Below the pieces are notes generated by a model. It worked only from the letters and a program-made list of their open reading frames with translations, searched no databases and was not told the DNA's origin. Below are positions 41,070 through 59,024 of a stretch of 64,000 nucleotides of DNA, piece after piece; position 1 is the first letter of the stretch, and each line of letters starts with the position of its first letter. The translations under genes were made by a program, and so were the position numbers. Origin of the DNA: a phage; assembly GCA_009015555.1 (NCBI GenBank), contig GCA_009015555.1_3613.1. One strand, 5' to 3'.

Positions 41070-41576
41070 TTAAAACGCATCACCAAAGTCCTCTTCTTCC
41101 TTGACGGGGCGCTTGAACTTAAAGTCCGGCCCCATGTACTCACTCAGGTAGTCGATATTAAGCGACCACTCCTGCTGGCTGCGCTGCCGCCATGTGGCAA
41201 ACTCACTTTTCAGATAAGCAATGGCCTGATCACGAGTGATCCCATTAACCTTCATGAATTGCTTGATCGCCCTTTCGAGTTTCCCGTTCTTCTCGGCGAG
41301 GCCCGGATGGTGGAACTCATGGCACGGCGGACACAGGCTCATGAGGCCGACCAGTTTAACCTCTCCATTTTCGAATGTCCAGCTTTCATGACACTCAACC
41401 GGATGTTTTCTTCCGTTTCCACCCTGCCCACCACAGATCTGGCAGGTGTAGTTGTGCTCGGCATAGCACTTCCGGCGCACCTTATCCCACCCGGTCTGGG
41501 TGAGGTAAGAACGGAGGTTGTTGTCCCACGCCGTTTGTGGGATCAGGCAGATTTTATGCTTAATCTTTGAAGTCAT
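41070..41576 (-). CDS. HNH-motif zinc-binding endonuclease-like protein
   Basis: CQICGG..HPVECHESW...LCPPCHEFHH; start at ATG with RBS AGAGGG. Confidence 0.55.
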   Translation of the reverse strand: MTSKIKHKICLIPQTAWDNNLRSYLTQTGWDKVRRKCYAEHNYTCQICGGQGGNGRKHPVECHESWTFENGEVKLVGLMSLCPPCHEFHHPGLAEKNGKLERAIKQFMKVNGITRDQAIAYLKSEFATWRQRSQQEWSLNIDYLSEYMGPDFKFKRPVKEEEDFGDAF

Positions 41577-42111
41577 TACGCACCCTCTCATACCCGCCGC
41601 AGCGGTCAATCAGGGCGTCCGTCGCCCGGTCCCACGCCTTGCCCAAGAGGTTCATCCCCAACCAGTTGGCCTCGTCGTCAATCATCGGGTGGTCTTGGCT
41701 CAGGCCGACACCCCAGATACGATCCCGGTCAGAAGCCTCAACAAAACTCCGGCCCGCAAGTCGGTGCTGGATCGCCTCGCAGCGGAGGCCGAGGTCAAAC
41801 ACCAGACGGCAGTAACAGACATTCTCGACGATCTGCTCTCGGGACTTCTCCCACAGTTCGTTGTTGAACCCCTTTACCTTACGACCAAGCATCTTGGCTT
41901 CCTGCGGGTGGAATACCTCTGTGATCTGCCGGGCGATATTGTGATCGGCAAACAGCATGGCCTTTTCGTACATCATCATGTGCTCCCCGGTGTAGAACTT
42001 AACACCTTCCTGCTCATGTCGCGGCAGAGCGAAAGCCCTGTCGTTTCGGTAATGATTACTGAACATGTCCTTCCACGAATAGAAGAACACGTGCTTGTCG
42101 GTCACCCTCAT
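41560..42111 (-). CDS. NADAR (YbiA-like) domain protein
   Basis: FFYSWKDMFSNHY, GEH..MYEKAMLF, AKMLGRKV, ANWLGMNLLGKAW blocks. Confidence 0.65.
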   Translation of the reverse strand: MRVTDKHVFFYSWKDMFSNHYRNDRAFALPRHEQEGVKFYTGEHMMMYEKAMLFADHNIARQITEVFHPQEAKMLGRKVKGFNNELWEKSREQIVENVCYCRLVFDLGLRCEAIQHRLAGRSFVEASDRDRIWGVGLSQDHPMIDDEANWLGMNLLGKAWDRATDALIDRCGGYERVRNDFKD

Positions 42112-45959: not shown

Positions 45960-46400
45960 TCAACGACTTTTGTAAATCTTTTCTGCTTCTTCCCGGCGAC
46001 GTTCGTCACGGGCCTTCCTTTCGATGGCACACGCTTCCCGGTAGGCTTTCCGCCGGGCACCGCAGATACCTTCGACCAGACGCAGAACGCGATCCTGCTC
46101 CCAACGGTTCATCCAGTCGAGATCCCCGGAGACAACAGGGGAGCCGTGGAAGTTGTCACGGTAAAGGTACGTCTTCACCTTCCGTTCGTGGTCGAGGATC
46201 ACATAGTCCACAAAGTGGCTACAGCGGTCTCGGTCCGCTTGCGATGGGTTGTCGTACACTTCCAGCTTTTTGGCAGCGATCAATTCGAGAATCCGATTGA
46301 CCGGGGGCCGGGTCATGCGCCTTGGTGTCACGTACTTATCCCATGCCCATACGAGGACCAGAAGAATAAACAAACTTGTGCAGACCCAGAATCCCGTCAT
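45960..46400 (-). CDS. membrane-anchored hypothetical protein
   Basis: Track ORF; N-terminal TM helix. Confidence 0.55.
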   Translation of the reverse strand: MTGFWVCTSLFILLVLVWAWDKYVTPRRMTRPPVNRILELIAAKKLEVYDNPSQADRDRCSHFVDYVILDHERKVKTYLYRDNFHGSPVVSGDLDWMNRWEQDRVLRLVEGICGARRKAYREACAIERKARDERRREEAEKIYKSR

Positions 46401-47764
46401 TCCAGATCCTCCGCAATAGCCCGCAGCAGATCCAGCAGGGAGTCAGATGCCTCGATCACCTCTTCCAGGCTGTTAGCCTTGGTCTTGTCCATACGGATCT
46501 CGACGAACTTGTAGTTCAGACGAGGCAGGAACAGAGACTGAAGCTCTTTGGTTTCCGACTTCGTGATGTCGTTGGCCTTGATCGTGATGATCTGCCCGAT
46601 GAAGAAGTCCGCTGGCTTCTTACGAAGCGCGTCCGTCAAGCCGGAGCCGACGCCAACTTCCAGCAAGCCGTCACGAGTACGACAGATCAGTGCGCCGACG
46701 AGACTAGGATCTTTCTTGTGCGGCGTTGTAGCCACGACTTCCAGATCAACATCGAACTCGTTCTTCAACTTGACGCCTTTCTTCGTCTTGTTGTCGCCCC
46801 ACGGCATCTTCGCCTCTTTGAGGACGGTGCCCTCTTTCTTCTGGAGGCGCATTTCGATGAAGTGGTCGATCGCTTCCTTCAGGCTGTTGATCTTACGGCC
46901 CGTAACCATACGGAAGTTGTAACGGCGATCGACTTCCTGCACCAGCAGATCCGCCTCGATACGACGATCAGCGTAGTCGGTCTTCGACTTACGTGCGATG
47001 TACTCTTCCATCGTCACGATGTCCCAGATCACCAGGCGCACCAGATCACGATCGATGTCTGCCGGGTCTTGGTTCAGGTAGCCGTTGCCCTCAGCACGTT
47101 CCATCACACCATGCAGGCCATCATCGTCGATAACCAGACCTTCGCCATGTGCCACAAAGGCCCCACGGTTTTCTGCCGCCTGCATCAGGCGCTGCTCGAT
47201 CTCTTCCGGAGCACGGAAGTTCAGTTCCTTCCCGGAGCGGGAGCGGTAGATCACCTGCTCAGGCCACACCATGATGTCCGCATACAGGCCATCCATTTTC
47301 TCGTCGGAGAAAGCGCCCTTGTAGTTGAACTTACGCAGCAGATCCTCTTTGAACAGGGTGTAGCTCTGGTACGGAGGCTCCGTGATCAGGTCTTTCCACA
47401 CCTTATTGGTCAGAGTGGTCTGGATGCCGCACTCCAGATCTCGGTTGATGATCTTCAGAAGTGTGCCCGGCTCCTCGCAGGTCTGTACCAGTTGAGTCAT
47501 GTACGACTTCGCATCATCACCCGTGTAAACTCGCCCTGCGATGTTCTTCACCAACAGATCCACGCTTTCAGACAGCGGGGTAAGACCAGTCGTGAAGAAT
47601 GGAACCCGCAGTCCTCGGACGAAAAAGTTCAGTTCTTTGGAATATGCAACAGCGAAGGCTTGTTTCAGGCCATCGTTATCGGCATTCGCCCGCAGGATCG
47701 CTTCCTTCTCCTTGAGGGATCGGGTTGCAGACAACTCTGCGAGAATACTCGTTACGTTTGACAT
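46397..47764 (-). CDS. ATP-dependent DNA ligase (T4 gp30-like)
   Basis: KMDG adenylation motif, RDLECG, PHKKDP, DKTKAN blocks collinear with T4 ligase; RBS GAGGAG. Confidence 0.9.
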   Translation of the reverse strand: MSNVTSILAELSATRSLKEKEAILRANADNDGLKQAFAVAYSKELNFFVRGLRVPFFTTGLTPLSESVDLLVKNIAGRVYTGDDAKSYMTQLVQTCEEPGTLLKIINRDLECGIQTTLTNKVWKDLITEPPYQSYTLFKEDLLRKFNYKGAFSDEKMDGLYADIMVWPEQVIYRSRSGKELNFRAPEEIEQRLMQAAENRGAFVAHGEGLVIDDDGLHGVMERAEGNGYLNQDPADIDRDLVRLVIWDIVTMEEYIARKSKTDYADRRIEADLLVQEVDRRYNFRMVTGRKINSLKEAIDHFIEMRLQKKEGTVLKEAKMPWGDNKTKKGVKLKNEFDVDLEVVATTPHKKDPSLVGALICRTRDGLLEVGVGSGLTDALRKKPADFFIGQIITIKANDITKSETKELQSLFLPRLNYKFVEIRMDKTKANSLEEVIEASDSLLDLLRAIAEDLE

Positions 47765-49859: not shown

Positions 49860-50010
49860 TTTTTCATGTAAGATCTATATAAAGATCCTAAAGATCAATA
49901 GGAATCTTCTATTGTTTTCTTGTTTTTAATAATTATTATGAATGTATATGAATAATAATTATAAGATCAATAATTTATGAGTGGAACGAATAAATTATAA
50001 GATTAATAAA
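49860..50010. repeat. AT-rich region with reiterated (T)AAGATC(A)ATA motifs and clustered GATC sites
   Basis: AAGATCTATATAAAGATCCTAAAGATCAATAGG, TATAAGATCAATAA, TATAAGATTAATAA. Confidence 0.45.
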
Positions 50011-50508: not shown

Positions 50509-50550
50509 ACTATCTGACTGAATCTTGATAAAATGGGGGCGGAGGAACTC

Positions 50551-51201
50551 ATGAACGAAATGCTTATGCTTGGGCAGGCCAAAGCTAAAGCTGGCCTGGA
50601 TATTGATTTTGAAGACGCCGAGATTGGCAGCACCACGATTGTGGACAAGAACGGACATCCTTTCACACTCGTTGGTACTATCGCGACTGGTGGTGGGGTA
50701 GTCGAAGACCCCGAGGTAGGGAAGTGCTTCTACTTCCCCGGTACGGGATACTTCGAAACCCCTATGGTAAAGGACCTTCAACTCGCTGGAGTACCTGTCA
50801 TGATCGAGGCGGTATTTAAGTGGGACGGTGCCGCAGGAGGGTCTATCTGGGAGACTGGGAACTACCCCAGTGGACGACCACCAACACCCGGCATTTGCCT
50901 TAGTGTTGGTCAATACCCTGCTACGTACATCCAGTATTTCATGATGTATACCAACGGGTCTTGGGGCCGTGGCCTACCTCCAGCTACAACCTTCACCGGG
51001 GAATGGGAGACTGTAACCTTCCAACGGTCAAATGATGGAACGGGACCAATGGTTGTTTATCGCGACGGTGCCGAGTTCTCCAGGGTTGCCTTGGGTCCAA
51101 GCCCGATCGGTAATGGAAGCAAGCTGTCGGTTGGCGGGTCGTACACATACGGTGCCTATTGGAAGGGACGCCTGAAAAGTCTTAAAATTACACCACTCTA
51201 A
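50551..51201 (+). CDS. hypothetical protein with lectin/LamG-like C-terminal pattern (tentative)
   Basis: Track ORF 50533..51201; start at ATG after GGAGGAA. Confidence 0.5.
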   Translation: MNEMLMLGQAKAKAGLDIDFEDAEIGSTTIVDKNGHPFTLVGTIATGGGVVEDPEVGKCFYFPGTGYFETPMVKDLQLAGVPVMIEAVFKWDGAAGGSIWETGNYPSGRPPTPGICLSVGQYPATYIQYFMMYTNGSWGRGLPPATTFTGEWETVTFQRSNDGTGPMVVYRDGAEFSRVALGPSPIGNGSKLSVGGSYTYGAYWKGRLKSLKITPL

Positions 51202-51203
51202 CA

Positions 51204-51234
51204 AAAGGCCCTTGACGGGGCCTTTTTCTTTTTG
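51204..51234 (+). terminator. rho-independent terminator
   Basis: AGGCCC-TTGAC-GGGGCCT followed by TTTTCTTTTT. Confidence 0.55.
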
Positions 51235-51269
51235 TAAGATCGCTTTACTTTAACTGAGAGGAGAGAGAT

Positions 51270-52160
51270 ATGATTCGTGCATATTTAGGCGGAAGTCAGT
51301 TGGACATCGAGTTCAGCACATTTGCCGGGGGCGAGAGAAACGTCCTCATCAAGGGTTTCCAATGGCCCAGTCCGTTCAATGCGGATCTGAAAGAGAAGAT
51401 GCCAGAAGGTAAAGACCTTGTTGTCTACGCCCATGTTGACAGTTCAGATGCCATCATGGACCTGCTGCTGTTTACCGACGCATTCAACCGCATGGGTCGA
51501 GGCACAGGCAACCAGGTGAAGAAGGTCTGTTATGTGCCATACATCCCGTATGCCCGTCAAGACCGAGTGATGGTTCCTGGAGAACCGCTGTCGTCGGCAG
51601 TGTTTGGAACACTTATCAACCTGTGTGGATTTGACCGTATCATTGTTGATGACCCGCACTCAGATGTGTCTCCGTCACACATCAAGAACGTTGCCATTTT
51701 CGAACAATATGAACTGGCCTTGGATATTCTTGGCCCGGGCTTCTTCGACGATGCCGTTATCGTAGCTCCGGACGCCGGGGCAATCAAGAAGGTCACGAAG
51801 TTGGCTCAGAAGGTCAACCACCGTGAAATCGGGGTTGGGACCAAGCATCGTGACCTTATGACCAATAACATCACTGACACGACTTATGCCGGGCCGGATG
51901 TTAATGGTAAGCGTGTCATCATGGTTGATGACATTTGCGACGGAGGTCGTACATTTATCGAGCTTGGTAAGGTTCTCCGTGCCAATGGTGCGAAAGAGGT
52001 TGTTCTGTACACCACGCACGGGATTTATTCCTACGGCGCGGATGTGTTTAAGGACGTTATTGATGAGGTTTACTCCGCCTATCCGTGGATGAAGAACCTG
52101 GAAGGCCGAAACGAAAATAATATTTTCAAATCTGTTGACAAGATGGTTGAGTTCAAGTAA
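51270..52160 (+). CDS. ribose-phosphate pyrophosphokinase (Prs)-like enzyme; candidate ADPR-pyrophosphate synthetase of a NAD+ reconstitution pathway
   Basis: PRTase type I motifs YARQDR, DPHS, VIMVDDICDGGRT; RBS GAGAGGAGAG. Confidence 0.85.
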   Translation: MIRAYLGGSQLDIEFSTFAGGERNVLIKGFQWPSPFNADLKEKMPEGKDLVVYAHVDSSDAIMDLLLFTDAFNRMGRGTGNQVKKVCYVPYIPYARQDRVMVPGEPLSSAVFGTLINLCGFDRIIVDDPHSDVSPSHIKNVAIFEQYELALDILGPGFFDDAVIVAPDAGAIKKVTKLAQKVNHREIGVGTKHRDLMTNNITDTTYAGPDVNGKRVIMVDDICDGGRTFIELGKVLRANGAKEVVLYTTHGIYSYGADVFKDVIDEVYSAYPWMKNLEGRNENNIFKSVDKMVEFK

Positions 52161-52211
52161 TATTCACAACGTTCCGGGGCACATTGCCCCAATTTAACTG
52201 AGGAGATTTAT

Positions 52212-54002
52212 ATGTTACATAACGACCTGCCTATCCTGTTTGCTGACTGGTACAAACCGAGCCATATTTCCATGTACAGCAAACAGTCTGAGATCGTACA
52301 AGACAACATGACCCCACGCTCAAGCAAACACTTTCAGCACTTTTCTGACAGTGACCAGCGCGTCATGTCTGCTGGCCTGCAAGGCTTTATTAAGTGGTTC
52401 CTGATTGAACACTTCAACCGTGAGTTCTTCGGTCGTCCGAAGGAAGAAGTTATCGGGGAGTTCAAAGAGATCTGTGACCTGGCGATCGGCCCAGACATGG
52501 TTGAAACGTGGGGCTTCGAAAAGCTGCATGACCTGGGCTATCTGCCTGTTGAAATCCGCGCCCTGCCGGAAGGTACTCTTTCTCCGGTACAAGTGCCTCT
52601 GTTCACAATTCAGAACACGCACCCGGACTTCTACTGGCTTCCTAACTACCTGGAGTCAGTGATCTCCTCTGAAAACTGGAAAACCGTAACTACGGCAACC
52701 ATTTTCTGGCAGTATCGTAAGCTGGCTGAACTGTGGGCGCAGAAAACCTGCGACAACAACCTGCACGTCCCGTTCCAGATTCATTGCTTCGCTTATCGCG
52801 GCCAGGCTGGCACTCACGATGCGGCCCAGTCTGAACTGGGACAACTGATGAACTCTCAGGGCACCGACACCATCCCGGCGATCCTGTATGCAAACCGTTA
52901 TTACGGTATGAAAGGCAAGTTCGTATCCGGCTCCATCCCGGCATCCGAGCACAGCGTTGCAACAACGAACATCGGGTTCATCATCGGACGCCTCCGTTCT
53001 GAGCATCCGGAAATGTCGCTGGATGACCTGCGTTTCCACGCAGAAGTCGAGTTCCTGCGCCGATACATCACTGAAATCTTCCCGAAAGGTTTCGTGTCTT
53101 ATGTCGGCGACAGTTATGACTGGTTCCGCCTGATCACTCAGGGTGTTCGTATCCTGAAAGACGAAATCATGGCCCGTGATGGTCGTGTGGTATTCCGCCC
53201 GGATTCCGGCGTACCGGAAGACATCATCTGCGGCACACTGGACTGGCGTAAGATTGAAGACCTCGACACGGCAGGTACTCTGGAACGCGCTGCCAATTGG
53301 GCACTGGAAAGTGCCGAAGATGAAGTTCGTGAGAACACCCCGCACGGTGAATGCGGTGATGAATCCGTTGAACGTTACTTCCTGTTCGATGGCGATCTGT
53401 ACCTGATGAAGGGTGAGATTGACTGGAACCGTCACGACAAAACGTATTACTACATCGACGGTCGCCGTGTTCTGTCTTACGAAAAGGCAGAACTCACTGA
53501 TGAGCAGAAAGGTTCTGTTGAACTGCTGTACGATGTGTTCGGTGGCGACCTGAACTCCAAAGGCTATCGTACTCTGGACACCCACGTCGGCCTGATTTAC
53601 GGTGACTCCATCACCGTTGCTCGCGCCAAAGAGATCTTCGAGCGCCTGGAAGCAAAAGGCTTTGCATCGAACAACGTTGTGTTCGGTGTCGGTTCCTTCA
53701 CCACCCAGTTCAACACTCGTGATTCTCTGGGTCAGGCAGTCAAGGCGACAGGCGCGGTTATTGACGGTCAGCAGATCATGGTCGTCAAAGAGCCTAAGAC
53801 CGACCTCGGCAAGAAGTCTGCTCAGGGCTTCCTGAAGGTTGTTCGTGGTGAAGACGGTGAACTGAAGCTGGTTGATAACCTCCAACTGGAGCAAGTCAAC
53901 GATACCGACAATGAACTGCGTGTGGTTTTCCGTGACGGCGTTCTGCTGGTTGACGAAACGCTGACTGAAATCCGTGAGCGTGTCACAGCAAACCTGAAAT
54001 AA
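52212..54002 (+). CDS. nadV: nicotinamide phosphoribosyltransferase (NAMPT/NadV)-like enzyme with ~100-aa insertion
   Basis: DWYKPSHI, PEG..VPLFTIQNT.PDFYWL, FAYRG, GTDT, SIPASEHS, YVGDSYD, FRPDSG, VFGVGSF collinear with NAMPT. Confidence 0.9.
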   Translation: MLHNDLPILFADWYKPSHISMYSKQSEIVQDNMTPRSSKHFQHFSDSDQRVMSAGLQGFIKWFLIEHFNREFFGRPKEEVIGEFKEICDLAIGPDMVETWGFEKLHDLGYLPVEIRALPEGTLSPVQVPLFTIQNTHPDFYWLPNYLESVISSENWKTVTTATIFWQYRKLAELWAQKTCDNNLHVPFQIHCFAYRGQAGTHDAAQSELGQLMNSQGTDTIPAILYANRYYGMKGKFVSGSIPASEHSVATTNIGFIIGRLRSEHPEMSLDDLRFHAEVEFLRRYITEIFPKGFVSYVGDSYDWFRLITQGVRILKDEIMARDGRVVFRPDSGVPEDIICGTLDWRKIEDLDTAGTLERAANWALESAEDEVRENTPHGECGDESVERYFLFDGDLYLMKGEIDWNRHDKTYYYIDGRRVLSYEKAELTDEQKGSVELLYDVFGGDLNSKGYRTLDTHVGLIYGDSITVARAKEIFERLEAKGFASNNVVFGVGSFTTQFNTRDSLGQAVKATGAVIDGQQIMVVKEPKTDLGKKSAQGFLKVVRGEDGELKLVDNLQLEQVNDTDNELRVVFRDGVLLVDETLTEIRERVTANLK

Positions 54003-54006
54003 TTTC

Positions 54007-54030
54007 AGCCGCCCTTCGGGGCGGTTTTTA
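54007..54030 (+). terminator. rho-independent terminator
   Basis: GCCGCCC-TTCG-GGGCGG followed by TTTTT. Confidence 0.6.
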
Positions 54031-54047
54031 ACTATCCGGAGGATGAA

Positions 54048-54206
54048 ATGAAACTGAATGAATCTCAGTATCTGGCGGCAAGAAAGGCGTTTGTGGAAAA
54101 TTCCGTATTCGATAATATCCGTATGTGGGTGGAAGATGGGCAAATGTCAGAGGATGAGCTTCGGGTGTTGATTGGAGAGATCTTCGCTCCCGTGGAGGTA
54201 GAATGA
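54048..54206 (+). CDS. small hypothetical protein (52 aa, MKLNESQYLAARKAF...)
   Basis: RBS GGAGG; ATGA overlap with next ORF; below track cut-off. Confidence 0.35.
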   Translation: MKLNESQYLAARKAFVENSVFDNIRMWVEDGQMSEDELRVLIGEIFAPVEVE

Positions 54207-54394
54207 GAAACCCAGTTGCACGAAACGACTTTAACCGGGCAGCAACGCACCCAGATCGCTCTAAGCGGCCTCAAAAGACTGTAGACGAGGGTTTGCTCGA
54301 CTACTTTGCAGAAAACGCTGAGAACGTCGCATACAGCGAATATGAACGTGCCTCTACAAACGCTCCGGGCGCTCCCCTTCCACCCGGGCGTTGA
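54203..54394 (+). CDS. hypothetical protein (63 aa)
   Basis: Track ORF. Confidence 0.4.
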   Translation: MRNPVARNDFNRAATHPDRSKRPQKTVDEGLLDYFAENAENVAYSEYERASTNAPGAPLPPGR

Positions 54395-55477: not shown

Positions 55478-55553
55478 GCTGGATTAGCTCAGTAGGTAGA
55501 GCGCCTCACTTGTAATGAGGATGTCGCGGGTTCGATTCCTGCATCCAGCACCA
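55478..55553 (+). tRNA. tRNA-Thr (anticodon TGT)
   Basis: Cloverleaf by hand: acceptor GCTGGAT/ATCCAGC, loop CTTGTAA, T-loop GGTTCGATTCC, encoded CCA. Confidence 0.8.
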
Positions 55554-55559
55554 GATCAT

Positions 55560-55636
55560 GCAACGTTGCCGGAGTCTGGTAACGGCTCTCGCTGCAAACG
55601 AGATGAGCACTGGTTCGAATCCAGTACGTTGCTCCA
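55560..55636 (+). tRNA. tRNA-Cys (anticodon GCA)
   Basis: Acceptor GCAACGT/ACGTTGC, loop CTGCAAA, T-loop GGTTCGAATCC, CCA. Confidence 0.8.
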
Positions 55637-55637
55637 A

Positions 55638-55714
55638 GCGCCTTTGGTCCAATTGGTAGAGGCACTACATTCAAAATGTAGGGGTTCCCAGTTCGAATCT
55701 GGGAAGGCGCACCA
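55638..55714 (+). tRNA. tRNA with Leu anticodon CAA but short (5-nt) variable arm; identity uncertain
   Basis: Acceptor GCGCCTT/AAGGCGC, anticodon stem CTACA/TGTAG, loop TTCAAAA, T-arm CCCAG-TTCGAAT-CTGGG, A73, CCA. Confidence 0.55.
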
Positions 55715-55730
55715 AAATTTATGTAACCTA

Positions 55731-55759
55731 TTGACATAGTGTAATTATACTGCTAATAT
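55731..55759 (+). promoter_or_regulatory. sigma70-like promoter (TTGACA-17-TAATAT)
   Basis: Consensus -35, good -10, upstream of ORF 55786. Confidence 0.5.
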
Positions 55760-55785
55760 GGATACACTAATTCAATGGGGGCATT

Positions 55786-56160
55786 ATGAGCAAGGCTGCG
55801 ATTGTAACTCGTAAGCGTGGTCGCCCAAGCAAAGAAGAGAGCACAGCAATCGCCCTTGAAAAGGCAATGCTTGATCTCCGAGGCGAATTGGCCCGTCTGA
55901 CGCCGAAGGCCATTCATACTCTCGAAAACCTGCTCACAACAGGCACAGAGAAAGTGAAGGAAACCACGGCGAAGTATATCCTTGAGCAGGCGAAAGAGGT
56001 TAACAACCTCTATACTGAAGAGGATAACGAAGACGACGCAGCAGGCGGCACAACATCTGCCTCTTCTGAAACTCACGCTGGTTCTTCTGACGAGATGAAA
56101 AATGCCATCCCGTTGACAACCCAGATTCGTGAGTATAAAGCAGTAGGCGAAGATGATTAA
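55786..56160 (+). CDS. small basic/acidic protein with AT-hook-like RKRGRPSK motif
   Basis: Track ORF; own promoter and terminator inside tRNA cluster. Confidence 0.55.
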   Translation: MSKAAIVTRKRGRPSKEESTAIALEKAMLDLRGELARLTPKAIHTLENLLTTGTEKVKETTAKYILEQAKEVNNLYTEEDNEDDAAGGTTSASSETHAGSSDEMKNAIPLTTQIREYKAVGEDD

Positions 56161-56163
56161 CTG

Positions 56164-56190
56164 GAAGGCTCCCGAAGGAGCCTTTATTAG
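56164..56190 (+). terminator. rho-independent terminator
   Basis: AGGCTCC-CGAA-GGAGCCT then TTTATT. Confidence 0.5.
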
Positions 56191-56325
56191 AAGTTCTCTT
56201 TTGACGGGCACTTGTTAACGACCCGCAGAATGACGACGGTGTACAACGGCGTTTGATGGCGAGGAAGGTCTATAGGGATCAGCGCAGATCCTTGGATGTC
56301 AGGTGAGCCGTACAAAAGAGAATTT

Positions 56326-56413
56326 GGGGAGTTATTTCCGTAGAGGTAGCGGTGCAGACTGTAAATCTGTTGTCATTGCGACTCGGGTGGTTCGACTCCA
56401 TCACTCCCCACCA
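56326..56413 (+). tRNA. tRNA-Tyr (anticodon GTA), long variable arm
   Basis: Loop CTGTAAA, variable arm GTCATTGCGACTC, T-loop GGTTCGACTCC, CCA. Confidence 0.8.
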
Positions 56414-56419
56414 AATTAT

Positions 56420-56514
56420 AGTAGGATGGCTGAGTGGCTTAAAGCAGCATCTTGGAAAGGTGTCGGATCAGGTAACCCCTGGTCCCGGGAGTTCAAATCT
56501 CCCTCCTACTGCCA
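56420..56514 (+). tRNA. tRNA-Ser (anticodon GGA), type II
   Basis: Acceptor AGTAGGA/TCCTACT, D-loop GAGTGGCTTAA, loop TTGGAAA, long variable arm, CCA. Confidence 0.75.
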
Positions 56515-56518
56515 GACC

Positions 56519-56595
56519 GGATCGTTAGCTCAATTGGTTAGAGCAAGGGACTTTTAATCCCGAGGTTCGGGGTTCGAGTCCCTGACGGTCCACCA
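56519..56595 (+). tRNA. tRNA-Lys (anticodon TTT)
   Basis: Acceptor GGATCGT/ACGGTCC, loop CTTTTAA, T-loop GGTTCGAGTCC, CCA. Confidence 0.8.
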
Positions 56596-56760
56596 GAAAG
56601 GAAGAGGGTCCAAGCTGGTAATGCGAGAGGCGAGTCCTCAGACCAAAGCCCAGATGGAGGCCACCCTAAAGTCGTCCAACCGAAGGTCCCTGATTGAGTA
56701 ATACTTCCCCGCTTGTCGGGTACAGTTCTCAGTCACACCGGAAGGGGCGCACCCTATAAT

Positions 56761-56836
56761 TGACGGTGAGCATATAAGGACATGCGGGGGCCTGTTAAGT
56801 CCAGGATAGCTGGTTCGAATCCAGTACCGTCAGCCA
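56761..56836 (+). tRNA. tRNA-Asn (anticodon GTT)
   Basis: Acceptor TGACGGT/ACCGTCA, loop CTGTTAA, T-loop GGTTCGAATCC, CCA. Confidence 0.75.
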
Positions 56837-56945
56837 ATTTGGTTCCGACAAGGTGACGGCGCACCCCGGAGCGACGCTGAAAGATGCAGGCCGACGAACA
56901 CATACGTGTACTTAATCAATAGTCATTGCGATGGCTATTCGTTAA

Positions 56946-57023
56946 GTCCTGGTAGACAAACTGGATAAAGTCACCACCCTTTCAAGGTGGGGTTTGAGGG
57001 TTCGATCCCCTCTCAGGACGCCA
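56946..57023 (+). tRNA. tRNA-Glu (anticodon TTC)
   Basis: Anticodon stem CCACC/GGTGG, loop CTTTCAA, T-loop GGTTCGATCCC, CCA. Confidence 0.75.
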
Positions 57024-57117
57024 ATCTTTTAGGTCGGTAGATTAATGAGCAAAGGCCGCTCGCTGGATTCCAACCCCAGTTCAAGGCGTTCGATTCGTCA
57101 CCTTCCTGCCAAATTCA

Positions 57118-57193
57118 GGTCCTATGGTATTAGCGGTAAACATACTCGCCTGTCACGCGAGAGTCACGGGTTCGAATCCCGTTAGGACCGCCA
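57118..57193 (+). tRNA. tRNA-Asp (anticodon GTC)
   Basis: Acceptor GGTCCTA/TAGGACC, loop CTGTCAC, T-loop GGTTCGAATCC, CCA. Confidence 0.8.
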
Positions 57194-57200
57194 CTTCAAA

Positions 57201-57275
57201 TGGGGATTAGCTCAGGGGTAGAGCGCACAACTGATAATTGTGAGGTCGGTGGTTCGAAACCACCATCCCCAACCA
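57201..57275 (+). tRNA. tRNA-Ile (anticodon GAT)
   Basis: Acceptor TGGGGAT/ATCCCCA, loop CTGATAA, T-loop GGTTCGAAACC, CCA. Confidence 0.8.
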
Positions 57276-57345
57276 AACAGCCCCTCCCGGGATTGGACCG
57301 GGTTAACGGCAATCGCACACTGAGGCGTCTTCCGGGGGAACAATA

Positions 57346-57422
<77 letters not shown>

Positions 57423-57428
57423 AATTAT

Positions 57429-57503
57429 TGCGAGGTAGTTCAGCGGTAGAACAGGGGTTTCATACGCCTCATGTCGGCAGTTCGATTCTGCCCTTCGCAA
57501 CCA
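57429..57503 (+). tRNA. tRNA-Met (anticodon CAT; initiator/elongator/Ile-lysidine not resolved)
   Basis: Acceptor TGCGAGG/CTTCGCA, loop TTCATAC, T-loop AGTTCGATTCT, CCA. Confidence 0.7.
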
Positions 57504-57509
57504 AATCAT

Positions 57510-57587
57510 GCTCCAGTAGCCCAATTGGTAGAGGCACTTGATTTAGGATCATGTCAGCGATGAGTTCGAATCTCTCCTGGAGTACCA
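57510..57587 (+). tRNA. tRNA-like gene with Leu anticodon TAG, short variable arm and weak T-stem; identity uncertain
   Basis: Acceptor GCTCCAG/CTGGAGT, D-arm CCAATTGGTAGAGG shared with 55638 tRNA, loop TTTAGGA, A73, CCA. Confidence 0.45.
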
Positions 57588-57593
57588 CATAAA

Positions 57594-57667
57594 GCGGGCA
57601 TGGTATAGTGGTTGTGCCTTAGCCTTCCAAGCTAATGAGTCCGGTTCGATCCCGGATGTCCGCTCCA
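57594..57667 (+). tRNA. tRNA-Gly (anticodon TCC)
   Basis: Acceptor GCGGGCA/TGTCCGC, stem TTAGC/GCTAA, loop CTTCCAA, T-loop GGTTCGATCCC, CCA. Confidence 0.8.
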
Positions 57668-57740
57668 ATTCACGGTGAGTCACTGCCGTTAAGTGTGAAG
57701 TTAAAAATGCCCGTGGTGATCGGGTTATCTCACCCAGTGT

Positions 57741-57816
57741 AGGGGATTAGTTTAATTGGTAAAACATCGGGTTTTGATCCCGACATCGCGAGGTTCGAAT
57801 CCTCCATCCCCCGCCA
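57741..57816 (+). tRNA. tRNA-Gln (anticodon TTG)
   Basis: Stem TCGGG/CCCGA, loop TTTTGAT, T-loop GGTTCGAATCC, CCA; 1-72 is A-C mismatch. Confidence 0.7.
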
Positions 57817-57898
57817 CATTAATGCTCATTAGCTCTTGTCAGTGGAACTCGAACCCTTAGAGCAGGCGACACAGACGTGTGTTTTAGTGAGCATCAAT

Positions 57899-57974
57899 GT
57901 GGCCTTAATTCAGCAGGTAGAATCCCCGGTTGTGAACCGGGCAGTCGTGGGTTCAAGTCCCACAGGTCACCCCA
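57899..57974 (+). tRNA. tRNA-His (anticodon GTG)
   Basis: Acceptor GTGGCCT/AGGTCAC, stem CCCGG/CCGGG, loop TTGTGAA, C73, CCA. Confidence 0.8.
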
Positions 57975-57978
57975 ATCT

Positions 57979-58071
57979 GGAAGATAGGGCGTAGTGGTAC
58001 GCACCCGGATTTGAACCCCGGCCCGCTGTGGCGACCCCACGGTGATAGTTCGACTCTATTATCTTCCGCCA
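57979..58071 (+). tRNA. tRNA-Ser (anticodon TGA), type II
   Basis: Collinear with bacterial tRNA-Ser(UGA): acceptor GGAAGAT, loop TTTGAAC, long variable arm, ...TTCC-G-CCA end. Confidence 0.7.
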
Positions 58072-58092
58072 CCCCTGATCATAAGGCAAACT

Positions 58093-58785
58093 ATGTTAGA
58101 AATGTTAACAGTGGGTAAATACACCCCTAGTCCTATAATTTCTAGCCCTATGGATGCTTATTTTGAGGGCGAGAGGAATAATAAATACGGCACTGTTGAG
58201 TGGGTTGTTCCTCAAGGCGTCACCTCAATCTGCTGTGTAGTGATAGGCGCAGGATCTTCTGGCAGAAGCGGCGGTCTTTCTTGGAGAAACAACATTCCAG
58301 TTACACCTGGTGAAAAACTTAAAATGCAGGTTAACTCCACAGCCAGCGCCCTCTTGAGAGAGACAACTATCCTTTGTGCTGCCCAGTGTGGCGGCAACGG
58401 AGGAAAAACATATAACTCTGTGAACGACGGTGGAGGCAATGCTGGACAATCACCACATGGTAGAGGTGGTGCTGGCGGCTACACCGGGAATGGTGGTGAT
58501 GGGCATACGTTCACAGGTGGTCCAGGACCAGGGTCCCCAGGTTCAGGTGGCGGCGGCGGCGGAGGCGCAGTTGTGTATCTGAACGGATCATTGACACCAA
58601 CTGTCTGCGGCGGAGTCGGCATGTATGGACAGGGGTCGAATGGTGGCGCTGATAACAGCGCCGGATATCCAGGCTCCGGCGGTTCTGGAACAAGATACGG
58701 AAGAGCAGTCGATGGTTATGGTGTTGTCAGGGTTGTGTGGGGAAATTATTCATTCCCAACAAATGCCCCGAGACCGAAATCCTGA
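58093..58785 (+). CDS. glycine-rich repeat protein (GGxGG tracts, poly-Gly run) embedded in tRNA cluster
   Basis: Track ORF 58042..58785; start at ATG after AAGG just downstream of tRNA-Ser. Confidence 0.5.
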   Translation: MLEMLTVGKYTPSPIISSPMDAYFEGERNNKYGTVEWVVPQGVTSICCVVIGAGSSGRSGGLSWRNNIPVTPGEKLKMQVNSTASALLRETTILCAAQCGGNGGKTYNSVNDGGGNAGQSPHGRGGAGGYTGNGGDGHTFTGGPGPGSPGSGGGGGGGAVVYLNGSLTPTVCGGVGMYGQGSNGGADNSAGYPGSGGSGTRYGRAVDGYGVVRVVWGNYSFPTNAPRPKS

Positions 58786-58856
58786 TAGGGATGGTCCCTA
58801 CGAGGATCGTCTTTTGCTCAGTGGTACTCAGCATTTACTTAGTATTCAAACAATAT

Positions 58857-58943
58857 AGAAGAGTGGCGAAATAGGTAGCCGCACCGGACTGCTAATCCGG
58901 GGTCCTTCGGGGCCTGAGAGTTCAAGTCTCTCCTCTTCTGCCA
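58857..58943 (+). tRNA. tRNA-Ser (anticodon GCT), type II
   Basis: Acceptor AGAAGAG/CTCTTCT, stem CCGGA/TCCGG, loop CTGCTAA, long variable arm, CCA. Confidence 0.75.
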
Positions 58944-58948
58944 AGCAT

Positions 58949-59024
58949 GGAACTGTAGCTCAGTTGGTAGAGCGGTTGCCTGAAGAGCAGCGCGTCAGCG
59001 GTTCAAATCCGTTCAGTTCCACCA
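58949..59024 (+). tRNA. tRNA-Phe (anticodon GAA)
   Basis: Acceptor GGAACTG/CAGTTCC, D-arm TAGCTCAGTTGGTAGAGC, loop CTGAAGA, T-loop GGTTCAAATCC, CCA. Confidence 0.8.

Follow-up and report, generated by a model that had tools for sequence, protein, structure and literature searches.

Two pathways that restore NAD+, NARP1 and NARP2, have been described in phages, and no phage was found to carry both (10.1101/2024.02.11.579819). NARP1 consists at its core of two enzymes, the ADP-ribose pyrophosphate synthetase Adps and the nicotinamide ADP-ribose transferase Namat; it occurs in 859 phages (4.3%), and its Adps forms a phage-specific clade with Namat as a neighbor in 97% (10.1101/2024.02.11.579819). 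Here we examined a phage DNA stretch of 64,000 nucleotides (NCBI GenBank assembly GCA_009015555.1, contig GCA_009015555.1_3613.1; hereafter the window), which amounts to about 43% of a ~150-kb genome, and in which a gene for a ribose-phosphate pyrophosphokinase (Prs)-like protein is followed by one for a nicotinamide phosphoribosyltransferase (NAMPT)-like protein. Judged by sequence, a structure model and homology to the validated systems, this pair is very probably an intact core two-gene NARP1 operon of a Certrevirus.

The Adps of Bacillus phage SPbetaL1 pyrophosphorylates ADP-ribose, yields no product on ribose-5-phosphate and is inactive as a K162A mutant, and Namat joins ADPR-pyrophosphate (ADPR-PP) with nicotinamide into NAD+, preferring ADPR-PP over phosphoribosyl pyrophosphate (PRPP) and making only NAD+ when both are given (10.1101/2024.02.11.579819). 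In vivo, protection against SIR2-HerA by the "Prs + Nampt" operon of phage Bas63 did not require host pncC and nadR, and ADPR-PP appears in Bas63 infection only with an active NADase defense; NARP2, in turn, pairs a separate Nampt clade with Nmnat and raises NAD+ even without a defense system (10.1101/2024.02.11.579819). The biochemically tested NARP1 examples that we found comprise SPbetaL1, Bas63 (in vivo), Fado, DyoEdafos, Vibrio phage Gary and one bacterial pair. Crystal structures of SPbetaL1 Namat (9W5X and 9W5W) were solved by Lan et al. (PMC12774641).

The gene pair and its lineage

Both open reading frames (ORFs) of the window pair are intact and lie at the coordinates given in a first-pass annotation made from the sequence, adjacent and codirectional as it had stated: adps, encoding a predicted Prs-family ADP-ribose pyrophosphate synthetase of 296 aa, at 51270–52160 (+), and namat, encoding a predicted NAMPT-family nicotinamide ADP-ribose transferase of 596 aa, at 52212–54002 (+). 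Under the operational definition of Osterman et al., NARP1 is present where a gene of the Adps clade has a Namat homologue within ten genes; in the window the two stand next to each other on the same strand, with 51 nt between them.

The DNA of the pair is 95–96% identical to that of Pectobacterium phage PcCB7V and Cronobacter phages CR3, CR8 and PBES 02, which share the same genes, order, lengths (296 and 596 aa) and flanking terminators, and 84–88% identical to that of other Certrevirus members. By this identity the window phage is a Certrevirus (Vequintavirinae) myophage of the CR3/PcCB7V type, and, its GC content being ~50%, it is therefore not Felix-O1-like; the statement of the first-pass annotation that Felix-O1-like phages carry the pair is borne out, for example by Bas63 (JohannRWettstein, Felixounavirus). 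Across the pair, amino acid identity to CR3 is 97–99.7%, and both genes are under purifying selection in this comparison (nonsynonymous-to-synonymous rate ratio, dN/dS, 0.07 and 0.05). CR3, PcCB7V, CB7 and phiTE are listed in Tables S1 and S2 of Osterman et al., with "Namat within 10 genes: Yes" for Prs/Adps and "Adps-associated" for Namat, and these tables also list CR8 and PBES 02 (10.1101/2024.02.11.579819). Since its CR3 and PcCB7V orthologues, with identities of 95–97%, stand in these tables, the window pair is, by orthology, an already catalogued NARP1 instance and was known at that level.

Assignment of the two proteins

The first translation contains the Prs-type motifs quoted in the first-pass annotation (PYARQDR, DDPHSDVS, RVIMVDDICDGGRTF and VIMVDDICDGGRT), and family searches assigned it to Pfam Pribosyltran_N, Pribosyltran and Pribosyl_synth and to phrog_619 (E=1.5e-87); the second protein matched Pfam NAPRTase (E=1.6e-24) and phrog_448 (E=3e-188). 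Taken literally, these Pfam and PHROG names and those of NCBIfam, all Prs and NAMPT/NAPRTase, favor the main competing explanation, a classical salvage in which a true PRPP synthetase and a true NAMPT would act together and host NadR or PncC/NadD would complete NAD+. The 2020 description of Certrevirus CB7 read the pair in this way, as a route from PRPP to nicotinamide mononucleotide (NMN), and all catalytic residues shared with Prs and NAMPT are present. However, the family names were rejected as discriminators, as validated Adps, Namat and NARP2 Nampt proteins score much alike on these very models and there is no Adps- or Namat-specific model. The NCBIfam scores behave likewise: the first protein stays below every Prs equivalog cutoff (best 98–112 bits versus cutoffs of 296–536), as do the validated Adps proteins, and the broad subfamily model TIGR01251 (cutoff 113) is passed by the window protein with a score of 139.9 and by Bas63 Adps with 138.5, but not by SPbetaL1 Adps (106).

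A neighbor-joining tree was built from 6 bona fide bacterial Prs, 2 divergent Prs-like proteins and 18 members of the Adps clade, of which 13 came from Osterman Table S1 and five from fetched loci (the window, CR3, Bas63, SPbetaL1 and pBtic235). In 200/200 bootstraps the window protein fell in one clade with Bas63 and SPbetaL1 Adps, with all Prs outside. This placement argues against a true PRPP synthetase, as does the lack of product of SPbetaL1 Adps on ribose-5-phosphate (10.1101/2024.02.11.579819). In BLASTP the window protein was 40% identical to the Adps of Bas63 and 34% identical to that of SPbetaL1; the best solved Prs structure scored 81 bits, and a Protein Data Bank (PDB) search found no solved Adps structure. 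The catalytic lysine K162 of SPbetaL1 aligns with K192 of the window protein, which is also kept in Prs and is therefore necessary, not discriminating. Six alignment columns distinguish Adps from Prs in this data set, and at each of them the window protein agrees with Adps. It shares DDICDGGRT with Bas63 Adps, in place of DDLSSFGGT in SPbetaL1. By homology, the first protein is predicted to use ADP-ribose, and not ribose-5-phosphate, as the pyrophosphate acceptor.

For the second protein, a phmmer search against the PDB ranked SPbetaL1 Namat 9W5X first (418 bits), followed by Haemophilus ducreyi NadV (HdNadV, 354 bits), Xanthomonas (Xcc) Nampt (190 bits) and mammalian NAMPT (~156 bits). An AlphaFold2 (AF2) model made with 145 diverse sequences (pLDDT 96.7, pTM 0.93) had Namat chains (9W5X) as its top Foldseek matches, with a TM score of 0.94 on the target. 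HdNadV (9KE8), which from its PDB title and established knowledge we take to be an NMN-forming NAMPT, was the second-closest solved structure (TM ~0.92) and lacks both the aromatic clamp and the insertion described below; no relevant paper came up in a literature search on the PDB entries 9KE8 and 9KEO. Sequence identity was 47% to SPbetaL1 Namat, 42% to Bas63 Namat and 31% to the RB16 enzyme. The sequence-level tests group both proteins with the validated NARP1 enzymes and not with canonical Prs and NAMPT (tree; 418 bits; TM 0.94).

The residues that hold the adenine in Namat were then compared. The selectivity-clamp helix (SCH), as defined in PMC12774641, reads GSFTTQFNTRD at residues 494–504 (53691–53723, +), with the aromatics Phe496 and Phe500, so that the published Namat signature GS-F-T-T-Q-F-N-TRD is present. 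Its equivalents in NMN-forming comparators are GAQTYQRNTRD in HdNadV, GGALLQKVDRD in Xcc and GGGLLQEVTRD in the NARP2-type RB16, where the clamp aromatics are replaced by Q/R, A/K and G/E, respectively, and the human enzyme also lacks the adenine clamp. The presence of this clamp speaks against an NMN-forming second protein, as does the finding that Namat with both substrates made only NAD+ (10.1101/2024.02.11.579819). The selectivity-clamp loop (SCL), TPRSSKHFQHFSDSDQ, was placed by alignment at residues 34–49 (52311–52358, +). By the published rule the loop has Arg, Lys or Tyr in third place, and stacking passes to the following residue in the case of Lys or Tyr (PMC12774641); the window loop reads, from sequence only, S-S-K39-H40-F41, with Lys39 as in Bas63 and then His40, a candidate stacking residue, where Bas63 has Trp. 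His is the second commonest residue at that position in the family (37/145).

The conserved catalytic histidine of the NAMPT/Namat core, which is autophosphorylated (PMC12774641), corresponds to His247 (codon 52950–52952, +) and is invariant in the 145 sequences, and SPbetaL1 Arg306 corresponds to R329, which is likewise invariant. Of 20 NAD+-contact residues taken from the crystal structure, 16 are identical to SPbetaL1, and at the remaining four (S190A, A362S, Y396F and R40K) the window protein has what Bas63 has or a conservative substitute for it; RB16 departs from these contacts exactly at the adenine clamp. Namat was chosen over Nampt on four grounds: the bit scores, the SCH motif, the NAD+ contacts and the clade label that Osterman et al. 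gave the CR3 orthologue. The second protein is predicted to favor ADPR-PP over PRPP, with NAD+ as its direct product.

Set beside the two validated systems, the window pair has the layout of Bas63, where Adps and Namat are likewise adjacent in this order, the Namat insertion occupies the same site, Namat is similar in size (593 versus 596 aa), and the clamp loop, by sequence, resembles that of Bas63 (Lys followed by an aromatic residue or His); Bas63, however, belongs to a different virus subfamily and is only 40% (Adps) and 42% (Namat) identical. The biochemically validated SPbetaL1 shares the fold, the SCH motif, the catalytic histidine, the arginine (R306=R329) and the lysine (K162=K192), but its Namat of 491 aa has no insertion and its clamp loop uses Arg40 directly. 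By homology to Bas63 and SPbetaL1 NARP1 we infer the substrates, products and anti-defense phenotype of the window pair. An NADase defense (Thoeris, DSR1/2, SIR2-HerA, SEFIR and similar systems) would split NAD+ into ADP-ribose and nicotinamide; Adps would move pyrophosphate from ATP onto the ribose of ADP-ribose, giving ADPR-PP; and Namat would swap the pyrophosphate for nicotinamide, giving NAD+ directly, with neither an NMN intermediate nor an adenylyltransferase.

Several points weigh against the NARP1 assignment. Enterobacterales hosts have NadR and PncC. Namat also makes NMN from PRPP in vitro (10.1101/2024.02.11.579819), an activity that supports classical salvage; with such host enzymes at hand, the gene content would therefore permit an NMN route. 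In the window protein, SCH position 5 is Thr where Tyr is usual, and the clamp stacking position after Lys39 is His, versus Trp in Bas63. The columns separating Adps from Prs came from a small in-house alignment and are not established specificity determinants, and among the biochemically tested examples that we found in the literature there was neither a Certrevirus enzyme nor a Namat bearing the insertion module. Nevertheless, the protection that Bas63 provides against SIR2-HerA in a host lacking both pncC and nadR (10.1101/2024.02.11.579819) speaks against dependence on host salvage, and together with the tree and the clamp it makes classical salvage improbable for the window pair.

Gene content and transcription of the locus

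Pfam scans were made of 47 window genes of at least 127 aa (all coding-strand ORFs of at least 150 aa and seven shorter ones). Among the best 25 of 33 families (E<~3e-7), no NMN adenylyltransferase (NMNAT; CTP_transf_like), Macro, RyR or Nudix domain was found, and the ten neighboring ORFs gave no Macro, RyR or NMNAT match, only Laminin_G_3 and a weak match to DUF7230. The annotation of the collinear CR3 region, including its right end, names no NMNAT, Macro or RyR gene either. The window thus appears, within these scans and this annotation, to lack an NMNAT, as the first-pass annotation had noticed.

The absence of an NMNAT bears on a NARP2-type explanation, in which the NAMPT-like enzyme would make NMN and a phage NMNAT elsewhere in the genome would turn it into NAD+. 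NARP2, as in Vibrio phage KVP40 and T4-like RB16, resembles the window pair in having a homologous NAMPT-family enzyme and in restoring NAD+; it differs in having no Adps, in needing an NMNAT(/Nudix) and in its clamp positions (G/G/E). As the window covers only part of the genome, a distal NMNAT gene is conceivable. On the other side stand the scans and the CR3 annotation, the lower identity to RB16 than to SPbetaL1 Namat (31% versus 47%), and the label "Adps-associated", not "Nmnat-associated", that CR3 and PcCB7V carry in a catalogue where no phage has both pathways (10.1101/2024.02.11.579819), so that a NARP2-type system is barely credible here.

Extended forms of NARP1 are built on the same core enzymes: NARP1-AP of Vibrio phage Gary consists of Adps, the Macro-domain phosphatase Adpp and Namat, and a RyDEP-extended NARP1 is found in mycobacteriophage DyoEdafos. 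Taking a Macro (PF14519, PF01661, PF20016) or RyR (PF02026) gene within two genes as the criterion, the Pfam scan of the neighbors found neither between nor beside the window pair. With no Macro, RyR or NMNAT partner, the pair is therefore best described as a core two-gene NARP1, neither NARP1-AP nor RyDEP-extended. The NARP1 assignment first proposed from motifs and gene context is in this way supported by the Adps-clade tree, the Namat clamp motif, the NAD+ contacts, 9W5X as the closest structure, the adjacency of the genes and the lack of an NMNAT.

The signals around the pair are consistent with its expression as one unit. Each gene has a strong ribosome-binding site (RBS), as had been claimed, about 6 nt before its ATG and read directly from the sequence: GAGAGGAGAGAG for adps (51256–51267, +), with its GGAG core 6 nt before the ATG, and TGAGGAGA for namat (52199–52206, +). 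A terminator scan found an intrinsic terminator of the preceding gene (50533–51201) at 51203–51235 (+), with the stem AAAAGGCCC/GGGCCTTTT and a T-run, which marks the 5′ boundary of the pair; its hairpin (51203–51226) folds with −15.7 kcal/mol (z=−3.9) and is identical in CR3. The 3′ boundary is an intrinsic terminator at 54007–54029 (+), AGCCGCCC-TTCG-GGGCGGTT followed by TTTTT, which was not among the scan output and was identified by reading the sequence; its hairpin (54007–54026) folds with −15.2 kcal/mol (z=−4.5), and the same hairpin follows namat in CR3. Between the genes lies a GC hairpin, GGGGCA-CAT-TGCCCC (52176–52190, +; −11.0 kcal/mol, z=−2.8), which has no T-run and is unlikely to act as a complete terminator; a single unit of both genes is therefore most likely. 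The claim of the first-pass annotation that terminators bracket the genes therefore holds for the pair, at both flanks, but not for each gene singly. A consensus scan also returned a sigma-70-like match, TTGACG-17-TAAGAT (51212–51240, +; 9/12 matches), as a weak candidate for the promoter of the pair; its −35-like TTGACG lies within the loop of the upstream terminator hairpin and its −10-like TAAGAT 3′ of the T-run, and 51203–51240 is identical in CR3.

The pair opens a rightward gene block that follows closely on a strand switch near 50,000. Elsewhere, Pfam identified in the window ribonucleotide reductase (RNR), ThyX, NT5C, MazG, PhoH, a tRNA nucleotidyltransferase, a ligase, terminase, portal and NADAR. 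The richness in nucleotide-metabolism genes (RNR, thymidylate synthase, NT5C, MazG) would suit a general metabolic role, in which the pair would enlarge the pools of PRPP and pyridine nucleotides that phage DNA synthesis draws on, whether or not the host has a defense, and NARP2 indeed raises NAD+ in cells without any defense system (10.1101/2024.02.11.579819). However, the pair forms a transcription unit of its own, the RNR/ThyX block lying ~15 kb away on the other strand, its first protein falls in the Adps clade, and Bas63 forms ADPR-PP only with an active NADase defense (10.1101/2024.02.11.579819); such a general booster is accordingly rated highly improbable, and the core NARP1 operon stays the preferred reading.

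Several further features of the window were recorded. A NADAR-domain protein of 183 aa (41560–42111, −; PF08719, E=1.4e-32) is encoded ~9 kb from the pair on the opposite strand and adds a further function related to ADP-ribose; the RefSeq annotation of CR3 does not name this gene in the collinear region. As NADAR proteins remove ADP-ribose from modified guanine, the gene could be a second counter-defense gene. The rightward block runs into 18 tRNA genes (55478–59024), which follow the pair on its own strand and are collinear with CR3, except that tRNA-Tyr was not called in the window and an extra tRNA-Ser(tga) lies at 57979–58071. An antisense ORF of 495 aa (52656–54143, −) was rejected as a gene: it is a codon-aligned antisense frame of namat with 5 stops in CR3, and it stays open owing to the near absence of TTA, CTA and TCA among the sense codons (1, 0 and 2). 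The same artifact was seen opposite the ligase gene (461 aa, 46376–47761, +).

Related loci and the Namat insertion module

Compared with CR3 (fetched locus L001, 9001–11733), adps is 99.4% identical in nucleotides and namat 93.7%, and most of the namat differences fall within the insertion module; the contrast between the near-identical adps and the diverged module points to mosaic exchange. Just past the namat terminator a cassette has been swapped (window 54030–54210 versus CR3 L001 11770–12489): CR3 has a 720-nt "DNA methylase 2" gene and the window instead a 52-aa ORF (54048–54206), and the two sequences reconverge at window position ~54203.

In several other Certrevirus members (phiTE, CB7, DU_PP_I/IV and P7_Pc) Namat is split by HNH homing-endonuclease genes, whereas the window gene is uninterrupted. 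The N-terminal fragment of CB7 Namat ends at the second variable site of the window protein (residue ~258, about 52980), and the HNH-associated intron of CB7 does not splice, according to the 2020 CB7 paper. Other Namat relatives, of 800–1114 aa (P0258, P0260, P0264, P0290 and others), have ~300-aa inserts between their NAMPT_N and NAPRTase parts; weak LAGLIDADG_3 matches in some of them suggest that these are probably inteins. Namat genes thus look like frequent targets of selfish elements. Shigella phage Ag3 encodes a protein (FJ373894_00125, Osterman Table S1) that runs from the Adps start up to DDICDGGRTFVE and then directly into the C-terminal two-thirds of Namat (…ATEHAVMCMG…RPDSGDP…), apparently an Adps-Namat fusion, a deletion or an annotation artifact. 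Outside typical phage genomes, the Bacillus thuringiensis plasmid pBtic235 (235 kb; L013, 2872–5399) has this pair too, likewise adjacent, under the names "ribose-phosphate pyrophosphokinase" and "nicotinate phosphoribosyltransferase", and its first protein groups with SPbetaL1 Adps; NARP1 therefore also occurs on plasmid or phage-plasmid elements.

The ~100-aa insertion that the first-pass annotation described in the NAMPT-like protein was confirmed as two segments relative to SPbetaL1 Namat, +21 aa at residues ~254–274 and +81 aa at ~343–431, but it is no peculiarity of this locus. The spacing between the equivalents of G341 and G434 ranges from 3 to 161 aa across the 145 diverse family members, and is 92 aa in the window, 88 in Bas63 and 11 in SPbetaL1, so the site is hypervariable throughout the family. 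The module in the window protein (residues 343–431; 53238–53504, +) contains the motifs ENTPHGECG and WNRHDKTYYYID and is predicted to be an ordered α+β unit, a helix with a three-stranded sheet (AF2 pLDDT 94–98). The motifs ETPHGExG and WNRxDKQYYYxD are common to 31 of the 145 sequences, among which R407 is invariant, and the module was detected in 54 of ~2,000 Namat/Nampt-bearing phage records. Neither of the two validated Namats compared, SPbetaL1 and Bas63, has a counterpart of it, the Bas63 insertion lacking both motifs. Presence of the module did not correlate with the clamp residues (positions 39–41, 496, 498 and 500).

No other part of the operon has diverged from CR3 as far as the module, with a synonymous divergence (dS) of 0.79 versus 0.22 in the rest of Namat and 14 of 18.5 nonsynonymous changes, and it is still under purifying selection. 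That it is a functional add-on and not a passive loop, defining a distinct NARP1 subtype, is a tentative and rather unlikely proposal; if so, it may dock Adps for channeling of the labile ADPR-PP, alter or widen the range of ADP-ribose-derived substrates, or shield the enzyme from a host countermeasure. Apart from this conserved module, the locus is already in the literature at catalogue level.

The value of the finding lies chiefly in annotation. In public records, PHROGs and NCBIfam the two genes still go by the names "ribose-phosphate pyrophosphokinase" and "nicotinamide/nicotinate phosphoribosyltransferase", and the pair is probably better read as a counter-defense module than as a PRPP/NMN route. 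The lack of an Adpp phosphatase predicts sensitivity to aRES-type defense, which yields ADPR-1″-phosphate, and the Cronobacter, Pectobacterium and Enterobacter biocontrol phages of the genus would be predicted to resist NADase-type defenses (Thoeris, DSR, SIR2-HerA and SEFIR).

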